DNA of 64,000 nt, taken from NCBI GenBank assembly GCA_029856045.1, contig JAHQWG010000033.1, positions 77,885-141,884 of the forward strand, in the 5' to 3' direction. The first letter of the stretch is position 1. The number at the start of each line of letters is the position of its first letter. Position numbers and translations under genes: made by a program. This DNA is from Promethearchaeia archaeon. GTDB lineage: Archaea; Asgardarchaeota; Lokiarchaeia; Sigyniarchaeales; SOKP01. Below the pieces are notes generated by a model, which saw only the letters and a list, made by a program, of their open reading frames with translations, had not been told where the DNA came from and ran no database searches. Positions 3,599 through 57,870 of the stretch are shown here, in pieces.

Positions 3599-4774
3599 AT
3601 GCTATATCATAAACATACCTATTTAATATGGTTATTAAGTCTCTCAACTATTCTAACTTCTTTTTATTTGCTCCAAATTGGAAAATCATATGCTCCAAAT
3701 ATTTCTTTTTTTAATAACAATAATTATTTTCAATTTAATTCTACAAATGCATATAATATAATTGAAACCCAACTTAATTTTGGATTTCGAATTCCAGGAA
3801 CTGAATCTAGTAAAAATTGTGGAGATTATTTTATTGAACACATCAATACAATATCACCCACGCTTCCAATTTTTCAACATAATTTTAGTGTAAATACAAT
3901 AAATTGTCGGAATTTTCTTATAACTATTAATCCCAATAACCCTCGCATAATAATCCTCGGAGCACATTATGATAGTAGAGCAATCTCTGAAAAAGATCCT
4001 ACTGTAGATAAAAGAAATGAACCATGTCCGGGAGCAAATGATGGAGCAAGTGGAGTTGCCACACTCTTGGAATTGATTAGAATTTTCTATGAAAAAAGAG
4101 AATCCCTAAATTGTTCAATATGGATTTTATTATTTGACGCTGAAGACCAAGGTAATGGAGCCTTGTCTGGTTGGGATTGGTGTGAAGGATCAAAAAAATT
4201 TGTTGAAAATATTAATAATTATTATAATCCTGAAACCCAATCAATTGAAGCAATGATTTTGTTAGATATGGTTGGTGGGATAAATTTAGAATTTATTAAT
4301 GAATTGAATTCGAATATGCTATTACTTGGTGAATTATTTGAAATTGGAAGATCTTTAGGATTTTTAGATGCATTCCCATCTGATCCGGTATCTAACGCAA
4401 TAACTGATGATCATTTACCGTTTAAAGAACTTGAAATACCAGTAGCTGATTTGATTATTAACTTTTGGAGTCCATCAAGTCCCTGGCCTTATCATCATAC
4501 AACATCGGATAATATCAGTCATATTTCACTAGGAAGTCTTGAAATAACAGGAAAAACGGTCGAAAAATTTATCTACAATCATTATTTCAACAGCCCCGAA
4601 TATGAAAATGACTCAGGATATTATCCATGGAAAGATATCAATGGAAATTTCAATTTAGATATCACATATTATATTATTTTTTTTGTATTAATTGTTGGAA
4701 TAGGAATTTCACTAATAATTATCAAAAAGAGAAATAAATTTCAAAAACCTAATAATAAGATAAAATTGAAATAA
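3599..4774 (+). CDS. M28 family peptidase (glutaminyl-cyclase-like), secreted, with C-terminal membrane anchor
   Basis: GAHYDS, GANDGASG, FDAED, LLDMVG, DDHLPF, HHTTSD; N-terminal signal and C-terminal TM followed by basic residues. Confidence 0.9.
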   Translation: MLYHKHTYLIWLLSLSTILTSFYLLQIGKSYAPNISFFNNNNYFQFNSTNAYNIIETQLNFGFRIPGTESSKNCGDYFIEHINTISPTLPIFQHNFSVNTINCRNFLITINPNNPRIIILGAHYDSRAISEKDPTVDKRNEPCPGANDGASGVATLLELIRIFYEKRESLNCSIWILLFDAEDQGNGALSGWDWCEGSKKFVENINNYYNPETQSIEAMILLDMVGGINLEFINELNSNMLLLGELFEIGRSLGFLDAFPSDPVSNAITDDHLPFKELEIPVADLIINFWSPSSPWPYHHTTSDNISHISLGSLEITGKTVEKFIYNHYFNSPEYENDSGYYPWKDINGNFNLDITYYIIFFVLIVGIGISLIIIKKRNKFQKPNNKIKLK

Positions 4775-4866
4775 TTCTAATTATTATGATAAATTAAAAT
4801 CGTATTAGTTATACTTTAAATTCCAGAAATTTAATTTTTATTTAAAATGGAATAATTGTTGAGATT

Positions 4867-5619
4867 ATGGAAAATAATAAAAAGATTTCCAATTCTGAAA
4901 ATGGAGAATTGAAGAAAAAAAAGTTATCTAAAAGAATCATAATTGGCATATTAATAGTTGTAATTGGATTTGGAAGCCCTTTTATTATAAATTTCTTAAT
5001 GCAAGCCATTCTTCAAACTCAACACCCACTTGTTGTAGTAGTATCTGATTCTATGAATCCAGCAATTTATCGAGGCGATTTATTGATCTTGCAAGGAAAA
5101 AATCCCATAGATATCGTAAATGGAACAATCGAGGGAAAAAATGGCGATATAATTGTGTATGATGCACATGGGGTATGGGATGAATGGCCAAATGGTCAAG
5201 TTCCGGATGAACCAATAGTTCATAGAATAGTTAATAAATGGTTTGATAATTCTACTGGAAAATGGATGTTCTATACTAAAGGAGATAATGATGTTACAAA
5301 TACTAATATTGACCCACCTGATGGATATTCTCAATTTGATTATAAATATCCAGTTCCAGAAGATAAGATACTTGGTGTTGTTATTGGACGAGTTCCATAT
5401 ATTGGCTATTTTAATATTTTCTTATCAGAAAATAATATATTTCTATATCTGATAATCGGGATTCTTGGCACTTTATTAATAATTTCTGTTTTATGGGATA
5501 TTATAAGCCCCGAAAAAGAGAAAGAGAAAGAAAAAGAATCTAAACTTATAAAGGAAAAAGATAAGGAACGACGATTAAATTCTGAAAAAATCATAATTCA
5601 AGATGAATTTGAAGAATAG
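4867..5619 (+). CDS. Signal peptidase I, archaeal/ER (Sec11-like, S26B)
   Basis: VVSDSMNP, IVHR, TKGDN, G.V...PYIG. Confidence 0.92.
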   Translation: MENNKKISNSENGELKKKKLSKRIIIGILIVVIGFGSPFIINFLMQAILQTQHPLVVVVSDSMNPAIYRGDLLILQGKNPIDIVNGTIEGKNGDIIVYDAHGVWDEWPNGQVPDEPIVHRIVNKWFDNSTGKWMFYTKGDNDVTNTNIDPPDGYSQFDYKYPVPEDKILGVVIGRVPYIGYFNIFLSENNIFLYLIIGILGTLLIISVLWDIISPEKEKEKEKESKLIKEKDKERRLNSEKIIIQDEFEE

Positions 5620-5700
5620 AAGAATAAATTTTTTTGAATTATTTTACATCAATATTGGATATAAAAGAAAAATTTTAAAATTAATATACTTTTTTTGAAT

Positions 5701-5722
5701 ATAATGTTCTTTTGAACATTAT
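5701..5722. promoter_or_regulatory. Perfect inverted repeat upstream of alba (candidate operator)
   Basis: ATAATGTTC-TTTT-GAACATTAT. Confidence 0.45.
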
Positions 5723-5809
5723 TAATTGATTAATAACATAAAAAACTCTGCACACGCAGAATTACTATTAAACAATAAAACGAGAATAAATTAAAGAGAG
5801 GTTAAAAAA

Positions 5810-6094
5810 ATGGCTGGAAATGATCAACAAAATGCTGTCTTCGTTGGACGAAGGCCCACAATGAATTATGTCATGGCTACAATGATGGTACTTAACAGAG
5901 GCGATGAATGCACAGTAAAGGCACGAGGAAGAGCAATTTCTCATGCTGTAGATGTTTGCGAAATCCTTCGCAACCGATTCTTAAAGGGAACAGAATACGG
6001 AGATATTATCTTGGGCACAGAGGAATTAGAAGGTGAAGGTGGGCAAAAAAATAATGTAAGTTCCATCGAAATTACATTGAAACCACCAAAATAA
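5810..6094 (+). CDS. albA: DNA/RNA-binding protein Alba
   Basis: VFVGRRPTMNYV, KARGRAISHAVDV, VSSIEITL; GAGG RBS upstream. Confidence 0.96.
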   Translation: MAGNDQQNAVFVGRRPTMNYVMATMMVLNRGDECTVKARGRAISHAVDVCEILRNRFLKGTEYGDIILGTEELEGEGGQKNNVSSIEITLKPPK

Positions 6095-6140
6095 AATACC
6101 TAAACTAGAAAACGTCGTTACATCGACAATACTTATCTAC

Positions 6141-6151
6141 TTTTTTTTTTT
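6141..6151 (+). terminator. Oligo-T terminator after alba
   Basis: Run of 11 T about 45 nt after the stop codon. Confidence 0.5.
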
Positions 6152-6367
6152 ATTTTAACCCAAAATGATTATTTTAATTAAATCTCTATATTAAATGTTC
6201 ATTTTTAATAAATAGTTATTTGTATCGTAATTAGAATATTTAAATCAAGCCCATCCTGTACAAAATCTCAAACCAGGGGTAATCTCTATATGATAATAAA
6301 AAATTTAGCATAAATTTATAGAAAATATATAAATATGTTTTTATATTTTTTATAATTTATATATAAT

Positions 6368-6697
6368 ATGACAACCCGAACTACAGTAGCAATTGATAAA
6401 GAATTAAGAAAAAGGCTTAGAAAATTATCTGCATGGCTTGATATTACGCAAGCTGAGGTTATTAAACGTGCATTATCATTATTTGAAAAAGAAATTATTC
6501 AAAATATGCAAACACCTAAAAAGCAAAATTATAATAAAAAATCTGAATCCGATATAGAAAAAATACTAAAAGATGCAACAAAAGTTATTTGGGAAAAAGA
6601 CCCAGAAAGAAGGACTTTACAACGGAAATTATCTGCCGGACCTGAAATAATTGATGATTTTATTCTAGATAATTGGTATACGGGATTGGAAGAATGA
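6368..6697 (+). CDS. Ribbon-helix-helix (CopG-like) antitoxin, VapB-like
   Basis: RTTVAIDKELRKRL...QAEVIKRAL; ATGA overlap with the downstream PIN gene. Confidence 0.75.
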   Translation: MTTRTTVAIDKELRKRLRKLSAWLDITQAEVIKRALSLFEKEIIQNMQTPKKQNYNKKSESDIEKILKDATKVIWEKDPERRTLQRKLSAGPEIIDDFILDNWYTGLEE

Positions 6698-46913: not shown

Positions 46914-47960
46914 TTATTTTTCTAAATCTTTAAAATAGGGTATAATTTTGTCTCTAAAGATTTCATAGACTTTGTTCACATCTGGTCCTCGATTCATAAT
47001 TGTCAAATGTGTTGCACCGGCGTCTTTATATTTCTCTATACTCGCAATAACATCATCTGTTGTACCTAAACAGTTAAAATCTTGGAGGATGGTTTCGGGT
47101 AGTTTGTCTACATATTTTAATTGCTCCATTGCGCCTTCACTGCTCATTACAAAATTATGAATGGTTAGATCACCAGATAAATTTATATTTGGATAAGCTT
47201 CGTTAACAATTGAAGTATTGAGTAGATATGTCCCTCTAAAAAATTCACACCTTTTAATAGCATTTTCTGGATTTTTATCATCTATTGCCACAAAGCAGTC
47301 ATATACATAATCAATTTCTGAAGGATCCCGACCAGCTTTCTTTGCAGCATCAGCTACTCTCTCTCGATTTTTTTTATATACCCAAGGAGGTTGATAAAGT
47401 GGATACCATCCATCTCCTAATTCTCCAGTCAATTGACGAGTTTTTGGCCCATTGCCAGCAATGTAAATTGGTGGGCTTTTTTGAACAGGTTTTATTTGAA
47501 TATAAGCCTTTTTCATTTCTCCCCAGAATTCACTTTTTGCATTAACTTTTCTCTTAGTCCAAAAATCTCTCATTAGAATTATATATTCTCTTAATTTAGT
47601 AAGAGATCTTTTCCGATTCATTCCGTACATATCAATATTCATCGCTTCACCAGCTCCAACACCAAACATAGCTCTACCATTGCTAATATGGTCTAAGGTG
47701 GCTACTTTATGCGCCATTAGAGCAGGATGGAACCGATGACAATCAGAAACTCCAGTACATAATGAAACCTTATTCGTTATCATTGCTAATGCCGATAAAA
47801 AACTAAAAGCATCAAAGCAAAGACCTGGTCCGGGTGGCAACATAACTGTGTGATCTGCATAAAAAACGGAATTAAAGCCACACTTCTCAGCTTTCTCTGT
47901 CCCGTTAAACATATATTCAATGCGTGGTGTAGGTACAGGTATATGAAATCCAAACTTCAT
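46914..47960 (-). CDS. LLM-class (probably F420-dependent) oxidoreductase
   Basis: YADH, HPALMA, LDHISNGRAMFGVGAGE, GDGWYP. Confidence 0.92.
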   Translation of the reverse strand: MKFGFHIPVPTPRIEYMFNGTEKAEKCGFNSVFYADHTVMLPPGPGLCFDAFSFLSALAMITNKVSLCTGVSDCHRFHPALMAHKVATLDHISNGRAMFGVGAGEAMNIDMYGMNRKRSLTKLREYIILMRDFWTKRKVNAKSEFWGEMKKAYIQIKPVQKSPPIYIAGNGPKTRQLTGELGDGWYPLYQPPWVYKKNRERVADAAKKAGRDPSEIDYVYDCFVAIDDKNPENAIKRCEFFRGTYLLNTSIVNEAYPNINLSGDLTIHNFVMSSEGAMEQLKYVDKLPETILQDFNCLGTTDDVIASIEKYKDAGATHLTIMNRGPDVNKVYEIFRDKIIPYFKDLEK

Positions 47961-48012: not shown

Positions 48013-50898
48013 TTAAAAATAAATTTCTTTTTTTCGGGCGTAAAACTTTACTAATTCAAACGGAATAATTGTAATTAATGAGATCAAGAAACAGATTAAC
48101 CAATCCAATGCAGTTAAATTCATAAACATAAAATTAATACCAATTTGTGCTAATCCTACTTGAACTCCAGGCATATACATTAATAATAAAAACACAGCAT
48201 ATAGAAAGCCTAGAATTAAATACATTCTTTTATTACTCGCTTCTTTTACACTTTTTATCAAAGATTCATTAGGGCGCCTTATTTGTAGAACTAAGATTGT
48301 TTCAGAAAAAAATAATGTAGTCATTAGCATAGTGAGTGTTTTAACAACGTTTAAATCAATACCTGAAGTCAAAGACATTGTTTCAGTTGTGAAAAGATAA
48401 GCAGCATTTAAAATATCAAATTCATAATTCAATGGAAAAACGGGATATAATCCTGTAATACATATTATATAAACAACTCCCATACTGATTGCAAGTAATC
48501 CACCAAATATTAGAAGTAATATAATAACATTTTTAGATAAAATTTCTTCGGAATCGCGAGGTTTCTCTTTCATTATATCTTTAGATGTAGTATCGAAAGT
48601 TAAAACCAGACCTGGGAAAGTATGAAGAGTAATTGCCAAAAATATCCATTGGAAAATATATTCTTCTGTGAGGAAATATGGGAATCCTAGAATGGCAAAT
48701 AAAATAAATTGAAAAATACCTTCAAATAAATTTATACAAATATAAAAAAATACTACAGCTCTAATTCTTGTAAAAATTCCTCGTCCTTCTCGAATTCCTT
48801 CAACAATAGAAATGAAAGAATCATCAGAAATTACCATATCAGACGCTTCTTTCGCAACATCAGTTCCTTGTATTCCCATGGCAATACCTGCATCTGCCAT
48901 ATTTAAAGCTAATGCGTCATTAACTCCATCTCCTGTCATTGCAACAACTTTCTTCTGTTCTTGATATTTTTCAACGATATCCTGTTTGTGTTCAGGAGAC
49001 ACCCTTGCAAAAACTCTCACTTTATTAAACTCCTTAGATGATTTAATAGATTTTATCTGATTCCCTTCTATTACCAATTCTCCTTCAGATAAGATTGAAA
49101 TTTGGGATGCAATCGCTTTTGCAGTATTTGGGGAATCACCAGTTATCATTATAACTTCTACTCCAGCATTATTGCATAATTCAACGGATTCTTTTACACC
49201 TTCTCTTGGAGGATCTAAAATTGTCACAAATCCGATATAGATCATTTCCGATTCGCAAATATTTCTTCCTTCTTCAAGATTTTCAGGAAGGAGATCTAAT
49301 TTTTTGTAGCAGAGACTTAATATCCTGTAACCCATATTTGCATATTTATTAACATTATTCAGAATTTCCTGCTTTAAATCATCAGATAGATCCATTTCTT
49401 TATTATGATACAAAACTCGTTTACATTGCGGAATTAAGATCTCAGTTGCGCCTTTTGTAAATGAGAAAAAAGTTTTTTCTTTTTTATATATTTTAGTCAT
49501 TCTTTTTATTGAAGAATCAAATGGATATTCTCTTATGAATTTAAACTCTTCATCAACATTATAATTTTGTATAGATTTTTGATATAATACATTGAGGGCT
49601 CCTTCAGTCGGTGAGCCAATTATATCATATTTATTAATAATTTTTTGACCTTTTGTGGCAGTTTTAATCTCTTTTTTAACTAAAGCTGAATTATTATTAA
49701 GAAAACCTGAAATCAGCAATAATTTCAACTGAGGATATTTTTCCACATTTTTAATAATTTTAGGATTCTTTATATCGTCCATCAAAATGATGTCTCCCTC
49801 TGGATTATAGCCACTCCCTGAAATTTTAAAAATTGAACCATTTACCCAAACAAATTGCACACACATTTGATTTTTAGTTAAAGTCCCAGTTTTATCTGAA
49901 CATACAACGCTCACTCTACCTAAACTATCAACTGAGGCAAGATTTCGAATTATAACTCCTTTTTGAGCCATAAATAAAACTCCTGTTAATAATACAATCG
50001 TTGTAAGTAGAGGTATATTAATTGGCATTATATCCATTGCTGAGTTCAAACTATCTACTATTTCAAAATATAAAAATTGACTCGCGATCCATTTGATCAT
50101 TAACGTTCCGAACCAGAATATCAAAACTGCTAGTCCTAGCCATTTTCCAAAGTTATTCATCTTTTCTCTTATAGGAATTTCACTTGTTCCTGCTTCTTCC
50201 ATTAAATGTGAGATTTTACCAATTTCAGTATTACCACCAGTCTTTACCGTTATTGCATTACCATTTCCTGTTGCTATGAATGTTCCGTAGAAAATCATAT
50301 TTTTCCGTTCTGAAATGGGAATCTTTTCAGAACTAAGAGCTGTTCCTTTCTCTAATTTCTTTACTGGTTCACTTTCTCCTGTTAGACTAGCTTCATTAAC
50401 TAGCAAATTTGAAGATTCAATAATCCTAGCATCTGCCGGAATTCTATCACCTTGGTTTAAAACTAATAAATCACCTGGAACAACATTATTTGTTGGTATT
50501 TGTTTCTTTTCACCATCCCTTTTAACAACAGTAGTAGGTGCAGATAATTGTCTTAATGCTTGTAATTTTTTTGTTGCTCTATATTGTTGAATAATTGCAA
50601 CTACGCAATTCAGAAGCACAACCCCTAAAGTTAAATAAACTATTATTAGATTTCCCTCTTCTAAAAATATAACAGCTAAAAATAGGATTAGAGCACCTAT
50701 TAAATATATTACTATAAGCCAATTGAAAAGAGGTGCTAAATAAACTTTAAAAATTGATTTCTTAACTTTAGGAATCTCATTTAATCCATGTAATTCCAGC
50801 CTTTTCTTAGCCTCAACCTCAGTTAATCCAGTATTCTCATTAGTTTGAAAAATTTCACGAATTTCTAGAATAGATTTATTATAATAAATATCGTTCAT
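48013..50898 (-). CDS. P-type ATPase, P2-like scaffold with atypical TM4 (PINIP)
   Basis: LTGES, CSDKTGT, KGA, DPPR, MITGD, MTGDGVND. Confidence 0.95.
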   Translation of the reverse strand: MNDIYYNKSILEIREIFQTNENTGLTEVEAKKRLELHGLNEIPKVKKSIFKVYLAPLFNWLIVIYLIGALILFLAVIFLEEGNLIIVYLTLGVVLLNCVVAIIQQYRATKKLQALRQLSAPTTVVKRDGEKKQIPTNNVVPGDLLVLNQGDRIPADARIIESSNLLVNEASLTGESEPVKKLEKGTALSSEKIPISERKNMIFYGTFIATGNGNAITVKTGGNTEIGKISHLMEEAGTSEIPIREKMNNFGKWLGLAVLIFWFGTLMIKWIASQFLYFEIVDSLNSAMDIMPINIPLLTTIVLLTGVLFMAQKGVIIRNLASVDSLGRVSVVCSDKTGTLTKNQMCVQFVWVNGSIFKISGSGYNPEGDIILMDDIKNPKIIKNVEKYPQLKLLLISGFLNNNSALVKKEIKTATKGQKIINKYDIIGSPTEGALNVLYQKSIQNYNVDEEFKFIREYPFDSSIKRMTKIYKKEKTFFSFTKGATEILIPQCKRVLYHNKEMDLSDDLKQEILNNVNKYANMGYRILSLCYKKLDLLPENLEEGRNICESEMIYIGFVTILDPPREGVKESVELCNNAGVEVIMITGDSPNTAKAIASQISILSEGELVIEGNQIKSIKSSKEFNKVRVFARVSPEHKQDIVEKYQEQKKVVAMTGDGVNDALALNMADAGIAMGIQGTDVAKEASDMVISDDSFISIVEGIREGRGIFTRIRAVVFFYICINLFEGIFQFILFAILGFPYFLTEEYIFQWIFLAITLHTFPGLVLTFDTTSKDIMKEKPRDSEEILSKNVIILLLIFGGLLAISMGVVYIICITGLYPVFPLNYEFDILNAAYLFTTETMSLTSGIDLNVVKTLTMLMTTLFFSETILVLQIRRPNESLIKSVKEASNKRMYLILGFLYAVFLLLMYMPGVQVGLAQIGINFMFMNLTALDWLICFLISLITIIPFELVKFYARKKEIYF

Positions 50899-50957
50899 TA
50901 AAATTTCACTTTTTTTATCTTACTAAAAACATAATAAATAAACTTTAAAAATATTGA

Positions 50958-53900
50958 TTAGAAAAATATTTTTCGTTTTCTTGCAAAATATTTAAAAAGT
51001 TCTACTCCAACAACACTTTGAGCAACAAAAACAAGCACCCAAATCCAATCTGTTGGACCTAAAAACATATAATTAAATTGAAAGTTTAAACCTAGAACAT
51101 CATTTATCGCATAATTGACAGGATATGAAAATACTATAAATAAAACGTGAATTATAACACAAAACATACTCATACCCATCAAATATTTGTCGAATTCATT
51201 GATAAAACTGTGTTTAAATGAATTATTTGGGCGTCGAATGCTCCAAATAAAAGTTGTTTCAGATAAATATAACACTGTCATACACATAGTTCTAGCTTTT
51301 TGGTGTGCTAAATTCATTGGCAAAACTAACCTATCTGAACCATATAGATCTTCCGCCAAAATGTAACTTAAATTTTGATCCAAATTAAACTCATTAATAG
51401 GTATTATATTGAAAAACGTAAGATAATATGATAAAGCGAACCCTAAACCCATTAAAACAGCTTGAGCAATTAATAACATAATTAATTGCTTATTTAATAT
51501 TTCTTCCTCATTTCTTGGAGGTTCTTTCATGATATCTTTCGGAACTTTATCTACTACTAATGCAAGGGATGGGAAAGAATGGACAATTGCAAATACATAT
51601 ATATGCTGCCAATTATTAAATAGCTTAAATCCTTCAATAGGAAGAAATTCAGCAGTAAAAAAGAAAACTGCTTCCACAATATTTATGCAAATGAAGAAAA
51701 ATATTATTACTCTAATTCTAGAAACAATTCCACGACCAATTCTCACTCCTTTTTCTATTGATACAAAGTTGTCATCGGAGATTACCATATCAGATACTTC
51801 TTTTGCAACATCCGTCCCAGTTATACCCATTGCAATCCCAGTATTAGCTAATTTTAGTGCAAGAGAATCATTAATTCCATCTCCAGTCATTGCTACGATA
51901 CGACCTTGTTCTTGGTATCTTTTAATAATTTTTTCTTTATCAGATGGAACCACTCTCGCAAAAACAGATACGTTATTAAAATCTTTTGTAGTTAAGCTTT
52001 CTATGTTTTTTCCCTCAACAACGATATCACCCTCATCAAAAAGATCAATATTTTTTGCTATTGCTTCGGCCGTTGCTGGATGATCACCTGTGATCATAAC
52101 TACATCTATTCCCGCAGATTTACAACTTTTAATAGCTTCTGTTACTCCTTCACGGGGTGGGTCTAAAATTACCACAAACCCTAAAAATATTAAATTGATT
52201 TCAACATAATCTCGACTAAATTTTTCATTTTTAGCCATAGTATTATCTATTTCTTTATAAGCAATACTTAAAGTACGAAATCCACTTTCTGCATATTCCT
52301 TAATTAAATCCAAAATTTCTAATTGTTTTTCATCACTTAATGATAAAATTTTCTTATTTAATATAATTTGATTGCATCTTTTCACAATTATTTCTGAAGC
52401 ACCCTTCACGAATGCATAGATTTTCTTTTCTTTCTTATCTTTAGGTTTATATATTGTACTCATTCTCTTAACAGAAGAGTCAAATGAAAATTCTTGAATA
52501 CGTTCAAATTTTTCCTTTAATTTATTAAGATCCATACCAGATTTTTCAGCTAAAACTAATAATGCTGCTTCAGTTGGACTTCCTAAAGCACGTCTAATTG
52601 TTTTAGTTTTCTTTTTTTTTGTTTTTATTTTTACGTCTTCTTCAACTATCGAAGAAATATTATTCAAAACCATAGATGTAATAAAAAAATCAAAATGATT
52701 TTTCTTATCAAAAGTAGCTTTTTTACCATCAATTTTGATTTCTCCCTCTTTATCATACCCAACACCCGAAACTTCATAAATAACGTTATCAAACCAGAAT
52801 TTTTTGACAGTCATCTCATTTTTTGTGATTGTTCCTGTTTTATCTGTACATATAACTGAAACTCTACCCATAGATTCTATTGCTGATAAGTTACGAATTA
52901 TTACACCGCTTTTTGCCAAATTTAGCACTCCTGTGAGCATCACCAATGTAGCTAAAATAGGAAGATTTATAGGAATAACATTCATAGATCTAATAATTGC
53001 AGCAACTAGTTCTCCTCTGATATTTTCGGAATTAAAAATCTCAAGTATTGCTAACACGCTGAGTTTATATATAACCAAAATTGAGAGATTTATAAATACA
53101 ATTACAACAAGCCATTTGGCAAAATTGTTCATTTTTCGAGTTAAAGGGATATCTTCTATACTTCCCATTTCATTTAAAGTTTGAGAGATTTTTCCAATTT
53201 CGGTTCTTATTCCGGTTGCAGCAACTATTGCTTTCCCTCTACCTGTCGCAACATAAGTTCCCATAAAAGCCATGTTAAGTTGTTTTTGTAAAGGAATTTC
53301 TTTTTTTTCAATTTTTCTTTCATTTTTTTCAATAGAAACACTCTCACCAGTTAATGGTGCTTCATCTATTGAAAAATTTACACTTTCAAATAATCTTGCA
53401 TCAGTGGGAATCTTATCTCCTTGATTTATTACAATAATATCACCAGGAACGAGTTCTCGAGTTTCTATTTCTATTCGAGCTCCATCTCGAATTACAGTTG
53501 TAGTTAGTGCTGAAATTTTTTTTAAAGACTCTAATGCCTTTTGTGCTCTATATTGTTGAATAATTGCAGTGAGAGAGTTTGCAATAATTACACCCCAAGT
53601 TATGTATGTAGAAGCTGGATCTCCTAAGATCAAAATAATTGTGCCAGAAAGAATTAAAATAACGATTAAAAAATTAAAAACTGGTGCTAAATACACTTTC
53701 CAAATTGATTTTCTTATTTTTGGAAGTTCGTTATAACCATATTCTTTTACTCTATCTTCAATATCTTCCTGTCTTAAACCGACTTCAATGTTTGTATTTA
53801 AATCTTTTGAAATTTCCTCAATAGAGTAATTATAATATGGCTTAGAAGCTATTGCCTTTATCCTCTCTAATTCTAATAGCGCCTTCTCATCAATGCGAAA

Positions 53901-53987
53901 AATTTTATTCTTTATTTTCTTTAAAGTTTTAGGTAATTTTTTGGTTTTTGAAGAAGTTTTTTGAGATTTATCTTCTTGATTTTTCAT
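50958..53987 (-). CDS. P-type ATPase, P2-like scaffold with atypical TM4 (PINLP)
   Basis: LTGES, CTDKTGT, KGA, DPPR, MITGD, MTGDGIND. Confidence 0.95.
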   Translation of the reverse strand: MKNQEDKSQKTSSKTKKLPKTLKKIKNKIFRIDEKALLELERIKAIASKPYYNYSIEEISKDLNTNIEVGLRQEDIEDRVKEYGYNELPKIRKSIWKVYLAPVFNFLIVILILSGTIILILGDPASTYITWGVIIANSLTAIIQQYRAQKALESLKKISALTTTVIRDGARIEIETRELVPGDIIVINQGDKIPTDARLFESVNFSIDEAPLTGESVSIEKNERKIEKKEIPLQKQLNMAFMGTYVATGRGKAIVAATGIRTEIGKISQTLNEMGSIEDIPLTRKMNNFAKWLVVIVFINLSILVIYKLSVLAILEIFNSENIRGELVAAIIRSMNVIPINLPILATLVMLTGVLNLAKSGVIIRNLSAIESMGRVSVICTDKTGTITKNEMTVKKFWFDNVIYEVSGVGYDKEGEIKIDGKKATFDKKNHFDFFITSMVLNNISSIVEEDVKIKTKKKKTKTIRRALGSPTEAALLVLAEKSGMDLNKLKEKFERIQEFSFDSSVKRMSTIYKPKDKKEKKIYAFVKGASEIIVKRCNQIILNKKILSLSDEKQLEILDLIKEYAESGFRTLSIAYKEIDNTMAKNEKFSRDYVEINLIFLGFVVILDPPREGVTEAIKSCKSAGIDVVMITGDHPATAEAIAKNIDLFDEGDIVVEGKNIESLTTKDFNNVSVFARVVPSDKEKIIKRYQEQGRIVAMTGDGINDSLALKLANTGIAMGITGTDVAKEVSDMVISDDNFVSIEKGVRIGRGIVSRIRVIIFFFICINIVEAVFFFTAEFLPIEGFKLFNNWQHIYVFAIVHSFPSLALVVDKVPKDIMKEPPRNEEEILNKQLIMLLIAQAVLMGLGFALSYYLTFFNIIPINEFNLDQNLSYILAEDLYGSDRLVLPMNLAHQKARTMCMTVLYLSETTFIWSIRRPNNSFKHSFINEFDKYLMGMSMFCVIIHVLFIVFSYPVNYAINDVLGLNFQFNYMFLGPTDWIWVLVFVAQSVVGVELFKYFARKRKIFF

Positions 53988-54124: not shown

Positions 54125-54442
54125 TTAAAAAAAGATTGATCTCCTTCTTCTCCTTCGATAAATTCTATGCCCTCGTCCAAATAATAATGCAGCACCAACA
54201 GCTAATCCAATATTATCGTCTCCTCCATGTACTCCAGAATAAATTGGTGGCGGTGATGATTGAGATGATGGATTTGGATTATCTATCTCATATGGATTAG
54301 ATGGATCAGCAGCTTGTGATGTTTGAACTGATTGTGTTTGAAAATTTGGGCTTGGATCTTCTTTCAACTCCCATCCACAATCAGGGCAGAATCTTATACT
54401 TGGGTCTAATTTTTTTCCACAATACTGACAAAAATTAACTAT
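54125..54442 (-). CDS. Zinc-ribbon protein with Pro/Ser-rich linker and Arg-rich tail (105 aa; start at ATA inferred)
   Basis: In-frame extension VNFCQYCGKKLDPSIRFCPDCGWEL upstream of the tracked ORF; GGTGA RBS 6 nt before ATA. Confidence 0.75.
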   Translation of the reverse strand: MVNFCQYCGKKLDPSIRFCPDCGWELKEDPSPNFQTQSVQTSQAADPSNPYEIDNPNPSSQSSPPPIYSGVHGGDDNIGLAVGAALLFGRGHRIYRRRRRRSIFF

Positions 54443-56850: not shown

Positions 56851-57870
56851 TTAGATTAAAATACCCACAGGCTCTCCCAGAAACTGTTTTATATAATTAA
56901 ATTGTTTCCTTATAGTGGTAGCACTGAAGTCTGAAACTTCTTCATCTGCTATTATTTTTTGTGTAAAAATTTTTTTAAAAGGGCTAATCTGTGAAATATA
57001 ATAAAAGAATCCTGCAGTAAAAGCTTTTAGATTAACACTGTTAATAAATTTATAAGGAATTAGTTTTAATACCTTATAAGCCAAGAGCTGCATTTGAATT
57101 TTCATATTTTCAAATTTTTCTTCGTTTTCAATATAATTGCTAACTAAATGATATGAAATTCTGTTTATTTCTCTATTAAATAGAAACTTAATTTGTTCTT
57201 TTAATTTCTTTTCTAATTCTAATTTCAATTGTTTTTTTTCTTTTTTTATGAATGTTAACACATAATCCTTATCTTTTTTTTTCTTTACTTTAATCGTACT
57301 TACTTTAATCACTGCGTTATTTAACATCTTTTTATTAATTTTATGGCCTATCTCATTACAAATTTCTAAATATCTTTCAATTCTAATATTTGTTGAGTCT
57401 TTTATTTCATCCCAGATAATTGCAAAAAATATCAAAATCATATTTTGAAAGGGTTTTTTAAAGTTCTTTAGATAAGTAAGATATTTCTTTTTAATTGATT
57501 CAAATTGAACAGAATCAATCTGAATATTATGATTTTTAAGTAAATCAATCTCACTCTTTTGACGAGTAAAATTAGTTTTTGAATCTTTATACCATTTGCC
57601 GAGTTTTTTAATCTTATCATATTTTAGCTTTATTATTGGATCTTGTAAAGCTGCTTTATCCAGTTTTTTGATGCGATATTCATAAATACGTTGCTGATTT
57701 TCTAACTCACTGGAGTATGGGAAATTATCTTTTAATATTGTAATATCTTCACTTAATATCAAACCACAATCTTTACAAACGATATGCCCTCTATCCCTCA
57801 GTAAATTCTTATGAGAACATGACGTGGCGTCTTTTTTTACCAGATTTAACTTACTGTCTTTTTTTTGCAT
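56851..57870 (-). CDS. Divergent TFIIB/TFB-like protein (zinc ribbon plus cyclin-like repeats)
   Basis: CSH...HIVCKDCGLIL; C-terminal AGFFYYI...FTQKIIA...SATTIRK. Confidence 0.65.
   Translation of the reverse strand: MQKKDSKLNLVKKDATSCSHKNLLRDRGHIVCKDCGLILSEDITILKDNFPYSSELENQQRIYEYRIKKLDKAALQDPIIKLKYDKIKKLGKWYKDSKTNFTRQKSEIDLLKNHNIQIDSVQFESIKKKYLTYLKNFKKPFQNMILIFFAIIWDEIKDSTNIRIERYLEICNEIGHKINKKMLNNAVIKVSTIKVKKKKDKDYVLTFIKKEKKQLKLELEKKLKEQIKFLFNREINRISYHLVSNYIENEEKFENMKIQMQLLAYKVLKLIPYKFINSVNLKAFTAGFFYYISQISPFKKIFTQKIIADEEVSDFSATTIRKQFNYIKQFLGEPVGILI

Follow-up and report, generated by a model that had tools for sequence, protein, structure and literature searches.

Few pumps are understood as well as the P-type ATPases. 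Among the described members of this superfamily, those that come closest to the two proteins considered here are the P2A Ca2+-ATPases, namely Listeria LMCA1 (6zhf/6zhh), SPCA1/PMR1, and SERCA. The two proteins, A and B, are encoded side by side in an AT-rich (~28% GC) 64,000-nt stretch from a Promethearchaeia archaeon (contig JAHQWG010000033.1), hereafter the window, and the P2A pumps are their best matches in sequence and structure (E ~1e-120, TM-score 0.7–0.76). A and B share with them the domain set, the 10 transmembrane (TM) helices, the TGES motif, the P-x-x-x-P arrangement of TM4, the N..E motif of TM5, and the TM8 glutamate. They differ in that Glu309 (SERCA numbering) is replaced by Ile or Leu, Gly310 by Asn, and Asp800 by His, and in that Asn796 and Thr799 are lost. 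Judged from their sequences, A and B are functional genes with a rebuilt pocket; we consider it probable that they encode working P-type ATPases of a distinct Asgard clade, in which a single rebuilt site would serve a small cation other than Ca2+.

Other described families resemble A and B in single respects. The P4 lipid flippases, such as ATP8A2 and Drs2, have a conserved Ile in TM4 (PMC5732287), at the position of the cation-pump Glu; P4 pumps are reportedly found in eukaryotes alone, and those of the P4B type work without a CDC50 subunit (PMC10654040). The P6 pumps, represented by mycobacterial CtpE, form the sole new P-type family since 1998, with more expected in prokaryotes, and provide a precedent for a prokaryotic P2-like clade that was given family rank on the grounds of a substituted TM6 Asp and an altered function; as described, P6 keeps PEGL in TM4 and has Ile in TM6, whereas A and B have lost PEGL and have His in TM6 (PMC10654040). 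P2-like pumps of Asgard archaea appear under putative Ca2+-ATPases (TC 3.A.3.2.21) in one survey of Asgard transporters. Literature searches found no published description of the clade to which A and B belong, termed PIN-type here after its TM4 sequence, and the clade is apparently an undescribed, Asgard-restricted variant of the type-II P-type ATPases.

The tandem pump genes and their cargo site

Both genes lie on the minus strand, as do all the motifs located below, in the order B (P0002, 50958–53987, 1009 aa) and then A (P0001, 48013–50898, 961 aa), and the two proteins are 43% identical over their whole length. Each contains all five Pfam P-type ATPase domains, including E1-E2_ATPase, Cation_ATPase, and Hydrolase, and both have the N- and C-terminal domains of type-II pumps, PF00690 (Cation_ATPase_N) and PF00689 (Cation_ATPase_C). 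The TGES motif is found at 50371–50385 in A and at 53340–53354 in B, and the phosphorylation motif at 49882–49899 in A (S-D-K-T-G-T) and at 52830–52847 in B (DKTGT); KGA, DPPR, TGD, and GDGVND were likewise located in A, and the full superfamily set (DKTGT, TGES, and KGA/DPPR/TGD/GDGxND) is accompanied by the Pfam domains. TGES, rather than the DGET of flippases, is present in A, in B, and in 119 of 121 homologues. In an AF2 model of A (pLDDT 83), ten TM helices are present, and TM4 is unwound over residues 289–294. Because neither the machinery of ATP hydrolysis and phosphoenzyme formation nor the 10-helix type-II membrane domain departs from the standard, the catalytic cycle of A and B should be the usual one (E1/E1P/E2P/E2).

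The changes lie in the cargo site, where residue equivalences for A were taken from alignments to the solved LMCA1 and SERCA2. The TM4 sequence of A is M-P-I-N-I-P (50011–50028), in which I293 corresponds to SERCA E309 and N294 to G310, both in the unwound part of the helix, and that of B is I-P-I-N-L-P (52959–52976). TM6 reads ITLHTFPGL in A (48607–48633), with H759 at the position of D800 and P762 at that of P803, and AIVHSFPSL in B (51564–51590), again with His at the D800 position. TM5 reads I-N-L-F-E in A (48721–48735), with N723 equivalent to N768 and E726 to E771, and INIVE in B (51672–51686). The TM8 motif is F-F-S-E-T in A (48298–48312), with E866 equivalent to E908, and YLSET in B (51255–51269). 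Two further Ca2+-site residues of SERCA, Asn796 and Thr799, correspond to A755 and L758 of A, and the Thr799 position is occupied by Leu or Val in the two pumps.

This motif pattern is far beyond chance. N294, N723, E726, H759, P762, and E866 are invariant among 121 close homologues (66–100% identity), and of 80 members from the whole clade, 75 have retained N294, 79 E726, 79 H759, and 77 E866. At the corresponding places, the 33 PE-type sequences in the same alignment (32 P2A-like pumps and E. coli MgtA) carry E, G, N..E, and D, and the two sets of states are cleanly separated. The hydrophobic residue plus Asn in TM4 and the His in TM6 occur together, and the sole exception among the best 150 representatives, P0146, is without both. 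The cytoplasmic entry path is also neutralised, since position 105 is Gln in 74 of the 80 clade members versus Glu in 32 of the 33 PE-type sequences. The ratio of nonsynonymous to synonymous substitution rates (dN/dS), calculated against 90%-identical orthologs, is 0.147–0.154 for A and B alike, which shows purifying selection on both.

The first-pass annotation of this DNA, which was made from the letters alone, had claimed that both paralogs retain every catalytic motif, and all of these motifs could be located in the sequence. Its coordinates for the TM4 motifs proved exact, and its assignment of the TM6 His, the TM5 N..E, and the TM8 Glu to both paralogs was confirmed by motif search and by the alignment to LMCA1/SERCA2. 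It had also argued that the Glu-to-Ile and Asp-to-His changes reflect selection, not decay, which agrees with their fixation across the clade and with a dN/dS of ~0.15.

Phylogenetic position and taxonomic range

An exhaustive protein search over 1.84 billion representatives returned about 35 clusters (at 50% identity) that combine a hydrophobic residue and Asn in TM4 with the TM6 His; their TM4 variants include PINIP, PINLP, PINIV, PFNFP, and PWNFP, among others. Below ~520 bits the matches change abruptly and become canonical pumps with PEGLP, N..E, and N..TD. Trees were built with FastTree and with IQ-TREE (LG+G4, SH-aLRT) and rooted on the P1B pumps of the window's own genome; they include Asgard P3A proteins and E. 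coli MgtA and omit eukaryotic P2B–D, P4, and P5 sequences as well as P6 (CtpE). The PIN-type clade is monophyletic in both (FastTree 0.888 with 80 tips; SH-aLRT 96.4). It falls outside the sampled PEGL clade (SH-aLRT 92.5; FastTree 0.965) and outside the clade of P3A and P3B pumps (SH-aLRT 99.9). A phylogeny was among the checks proposed in the first-pass annotation, and in the one obtained here A and B are not nested within a characterised P2 clade.

By source name, the homologues come from Promethearchaeota/Lokiarchaeota and from Thor-, Hod-, Hermod-, Heimdall-, and Odinarchaeota. Of 151 genomes sampled from the window's phylum on the basis of GTDB, about 94, belonging to 12 of the 27 GTDB families, have clade members when these are counted by a score threshold; the motifs were verified on 20 loci. 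Orthologs of A with at least 62% identity all fall within the window's own GTDB family, and some NCBI phylum labels therefore disagree with GTDB. A pattern scan with TM4 peptides, based on a 12-sequence alignment, was also run over 185,579 species genomes and found 181 relatives; the best 80 of these were examined, and every one is Asgard-type, with Promethearchaeum syntrophicum MK-D1 and Lokiarchaeum ossiferum among them.

Two records that might have indicated a spread beyond Asgard archaea were rejected. The record labelled “Candidatus Aerophobetes bacterium Ae_b3b” (L030, NJBP01000013.1) is ~90% identical to the window and collinear with it over 7 kb, as are records labelled Promethearchaeota, and its label or binning looks wrong. 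Small GTPases of the Arf/Ras/Roc type are typical of Asgard genomes, and a gene for such a GTPase lies on the contig of a “Korarchaeota” record, whose pump protein groups in the tree with family f16 of the sampled phylum.

The clade thus appears to be related to the type-II (P2A-like) pumps and to be confined to Asgard archaea as far as they have been sampled. This old and strongly conserved clade occurs almost exclusively in the archaea that are closest to eukaryotes, and its transport site has been systematically rebuilt. Its presence in the cultured MK-D1 and Lokiarchaeum ossiferum makes the substrate directly testable.

Comparison with known families and the probable cargo

The best NCBIfam models for A and B are those of P2A pumps, with 445–458 bits for the PMR1-type and 435–439 bits for the SERCA-type model. 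Both proteins remain below all NCBIfam subfamily cut-offs (for P2A, 703 bits for TIGR01116 and 798 bits for TIGR01522); the P2A cut-offs are also missed by a canonical PEGL pump of the same genome (575–608 bits). The top 50 Foldseek matches of the A model in the PDB are all P2A or P2C pumps (SERCA, SPCA, H,K- and Na,K-ATPases). The ligands that define P2A pumps are missing, as I293, N294, A755, L758, and H759 occupy the PEGL and N-x-x-T-D positions, and in the tree, which lacks eukaryotic references, the clade is separate from the sampled PEGL pumps.

The nearest solved relatives are Ca2+ pumps, and the public annotation is Ca2+-transporting ATPase. A and B might still move Ca2+ (or Mg2+) through a one-ion site I in place of site II, with the equivalents of N768, E771, and E908 all kept, although Asp800 has become His in 79 of the 80 clade members and Thr799, Asn796, and Glu309 are lost. 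In coordination chemistry, His binds Ca2+ and Mg2+ poorly, and a site composed of His and carboxylates therefore disfavours both ions. The genome, which is 100% complete in 55 contigs, encodes six P-type ATPases, namely two CPC-type P1B pumps, a tandem PEGL pair, and the A/B pair. The PEGL pair lies on another contig (C25:147415–153439; L111:422–3259 and 3603–6440) and consists of near-identical proteins of 945 aa each, which read PEGL in TM4, TNFDE in TM5, and NIATDGIP in TM6 and are ordinary Ca2+-pump-like enzymes; with this pair and the two P1B pumps, Ca2+ export and heavy-metal export are thus already covered. As the clade is also distinct from the PEGL clade, continued Ca2+ or Mg2+ transport is unlikely. 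The residues of the site likewise make the public label an unlikely one, and such labels affect the conclusions on Asgard calcium handling that are drawn from them.

The first-pass annotation had described the pair as flippase-like and possibly intermediate between P2 and P4 pumps. A lipid flippase, whether convergent or ancestral, would translocate the headgroup of an archaeal lipid by means of a hydrophobic TM4 gate like that of P4-ATPases, perhaps in concert with a DedA/VTT protein. This proposal is consistent with the Ile/Leu at the Glu309 position and with a gene for a VTT/DedA-domain protein (268–273 aa) that is inserted between B and A, in the same orientation, in 4 of the 17 adjacent pairs of the window's GTDB family (L118–L121, at G008:C89, G117:C53, G138:C50, and G049:C87; Pfam VTT_dom 33.6–38 bits, cut-off 33.9). 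The VTT gene is, however, absent at the window locus, at the 80 loci of the species-genome scan, and in most B–A pairs, and is therefore an optional neighbour; elsewhere in the window's genome only weak VTT/DedA paralogs occur (C11, C41). On the P4 profile TIGR01652 (cut-off 431 bits), A and B score 103–110 bits and clade members 98–147 bits, versus 95 bits for the PEGL control of the same genome, and A and B therefore have no special affinity to P4. Unlike P4 flippases, A and B have TGES and keep the charged Glu residues of TM5 and TM8, two buried glutamates, together with the His, and no P4 structure is found among the top 50 structural matches. CDC50 (PF03381) had no match in the window's genome, but the control genomes likewise gave none, so that this absence carries little weight.

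The hydrophobic TM4 residue has a second parallel in the P3A H+-ATPases. Asgard P3A pumps (L124–L126), which exceed 1000 bits on the P3A profile TIGR01647, read P-V-A-L-P in TM4 and have TGES, so that a hydrophobic residue in place of the TM4 Glu does not mark a pump as a flippase. On the same profile (cut-off 615.5 bits), A and B score 328–349 bits. They resemble P3A pumps in the hydrophobic residue between the TM4 prolines (P-I-N-I-P against P-V-A-L-P), in TGES, and in a putative single central site, but P3A pumps keep a TM6 Asp (LND), which accepts the proton, have an Arg in TM5, and group with MgtA, while A and B have the TM6 His. Taken together, this evidence makes a flippase very improbable and tells against an intermediate between P2 and P4. 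The alternative offered in the same annotation, a pump class with a new substrate, has held up, the clade being distinct and its cargo-site changes fixed. The P3A H+-ATPases (L124–L126 in G041, G058, and G034) were seen in 9 of 61 sampled Asgard genomes from four families, where they coexist with PIN-type pumps, and none was found in six searched genomes of the window's own family.

An organic cation, such as a polyamine or a basic amino acid, might be pumped by analogy with P5B pumps, since acidic residues are retained in what would be a widened pocket without the TM4 Glu. Genes for lysine 5,6-aminomutase precede the A-type gene in MK-D1 and L. ossiferum, a neighbourhood found neither at the window locus nor in the other lineages that were checked. 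The P5 profile TIGR01657 gives A and B 230–265 bits, above the 202 bits of the PEGL control, though MgtA also reaches 232 bits and the cut-off of 618 bits is far off; the P5 TM4 motif P-P-[EA]-L-P is absent from both proteins, which have PINIP and PINLP. Transport of an organic cation is accordingly very improbable as well.

The most likely function of A and B is that of a cation pump with one Asn/Glu/His/Glu site. Ca2+ site II, whose loss the first-pass annotation had also held, is dismantled, with Glu309 changed to Ile, Asn796 lost, and Thr799 changed to Leu or Val. The site-I residues Asn768, Glu771, and Glu908 are retained, the bridging Asp800 is replaced by His, and the TM4 Ile is followed by a new invariant Asn. 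In the proposed mechanism, N294 of TM4, N723 and E726 of TM5, H759 of TM6, and E866 of TM8 would form a single occluded site that matches site I of SERCA, with the TM4 Asn possibly capping it in place of Glu309. A site of His and carboxylates would best fit a divalent transition metal (Mn2+, Fe2+, Zn2+, Ni2+, or Co2+); transport of H+ or of a monovalent ion, in which the His could be protonated and deprotonated, comes second. The Gln in place of Glu at position 105 agrees with a cargo other than Ca2+.

Several points weigh against this account. We infer the convergence of the five residues into one site, as well as the cationic nature and the identity of the cargo, and the choice of a transition metal is a best guess drawn from general coordination chemistry. 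The TM4 Asn is exchanged for Ser, Thr, or Met in a few clade members, and the genes next to the pumps differ by lineage, so that gene context gives no hint of the substrate. The branching order of the PIN, PEGL, and P3 clades is not settled by the tree (SH-aLRT 57.7), and the rank of the clade is not fixed by a tree without the P6 reference and the eukaryotic P2B–D, P4, and P5 references. A bolder version, in which the clade would be a seventh, Asgard-specific P-type family with a His/Glu/Glu/Asn site and a cargo new to type-II pumps (a transition metal, imported or exported on a P2-like scaffold, or a non-metal), and in which the repeated pairing with VTT/DedA in some genera would be an archaeal precursor of the connection that eukaryotes have between VMP1-type scramblases and SERCA-type pumps, is a long shot.

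Gene order and neighbourhood

The order B then A recurs within the window's family (17 pairs), at 19 of the 80 loci of the species-genome scan, and in L001–L003, and the conserved adjacency within the window's family suggests that the two pumps are used together. B forms a deep paralog branch in the trees, and the B/A duplication is therefore old. The recurring order and the old duplication could both be accommodated by an obligatory heteromeric pump of A and B. However, a single pump gene is present at the locus in MK-D1, L. ossiferum, and Thor-type genomes, the catalytic and site residues are complete in both proteins, and the PEGL pumps of the same genome are also in tandem, so that tandem duplication is common here. 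An obligatory heteromer is thus distinctly unlikely.

The B–A spacer (50899–50957, minus strand) is 59 bp long and AT-rich; read directly, it contains the TATA-like elements TTTAAA/TTTATTTATTA, two T5 runs, and a Shine–Dalgarno-like GTGA element ~9 nt before the ATG of A. B begins with a Lys-rich N-terminal extension of ~45 aa (residues 1–45, window 53853–53987), which is confined to its closest relatives (1007–1010 aa), other B-type orthologs having 947–970 aa.

The neighbours of the pumps are a luciferase-like oxidoreductase in the window, a lysine aminomutase in MK-D1 and L. ossiferum, and unrelated genes at Thor-type loci. The luciferase-like oxidoreductase, which is probably F420-dependent, is encoded at 46914–47960 on the minus strand, 52 bp downstream of A; in L001–L003, luciferase-like genes lie just downstream of the pump pair, after a GNAT acetyltransferase gene that is absent from the window locus. 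A Zn-ribbon/TFIIB-like protein of 339 aa is encoded at 56851–57870 on the minus strand, and a 321-aa homologue of it (44–46% identical) lies directly upstream of B–A, on the same strand, in L001–L003. Between the TFIIB-like gene and the pair, the window has a thiolase gene, a DUF35-like OB-fold gene, and an opposite-strand open reading frame (ORF) of 205 aa. The TFIIB-like and luciferase-like genes are syntenic with the pump pair among close relatives only.

In the product of a small ORF just upstream of B (54125–54440, minus strand), a zinc ribbon of the form CxxC...CxxC is joined by a linker rich in Pro and Ser to a hydrophobic tail rich in Arg; as its zinc ribbon is preceded by no ATG, GTG, or TTG start, the gene is possibly truncated or has a different start. 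The A-type gene of MK-D1 and L. ossiferum (L065:710–3086, L041:28–2283) stands directly after the genes for both subunits of the B12-dependent lysine 5,6-aminomutase, on the same strand, and downstream it is faced by a gene for an M1 aminopeptidase.

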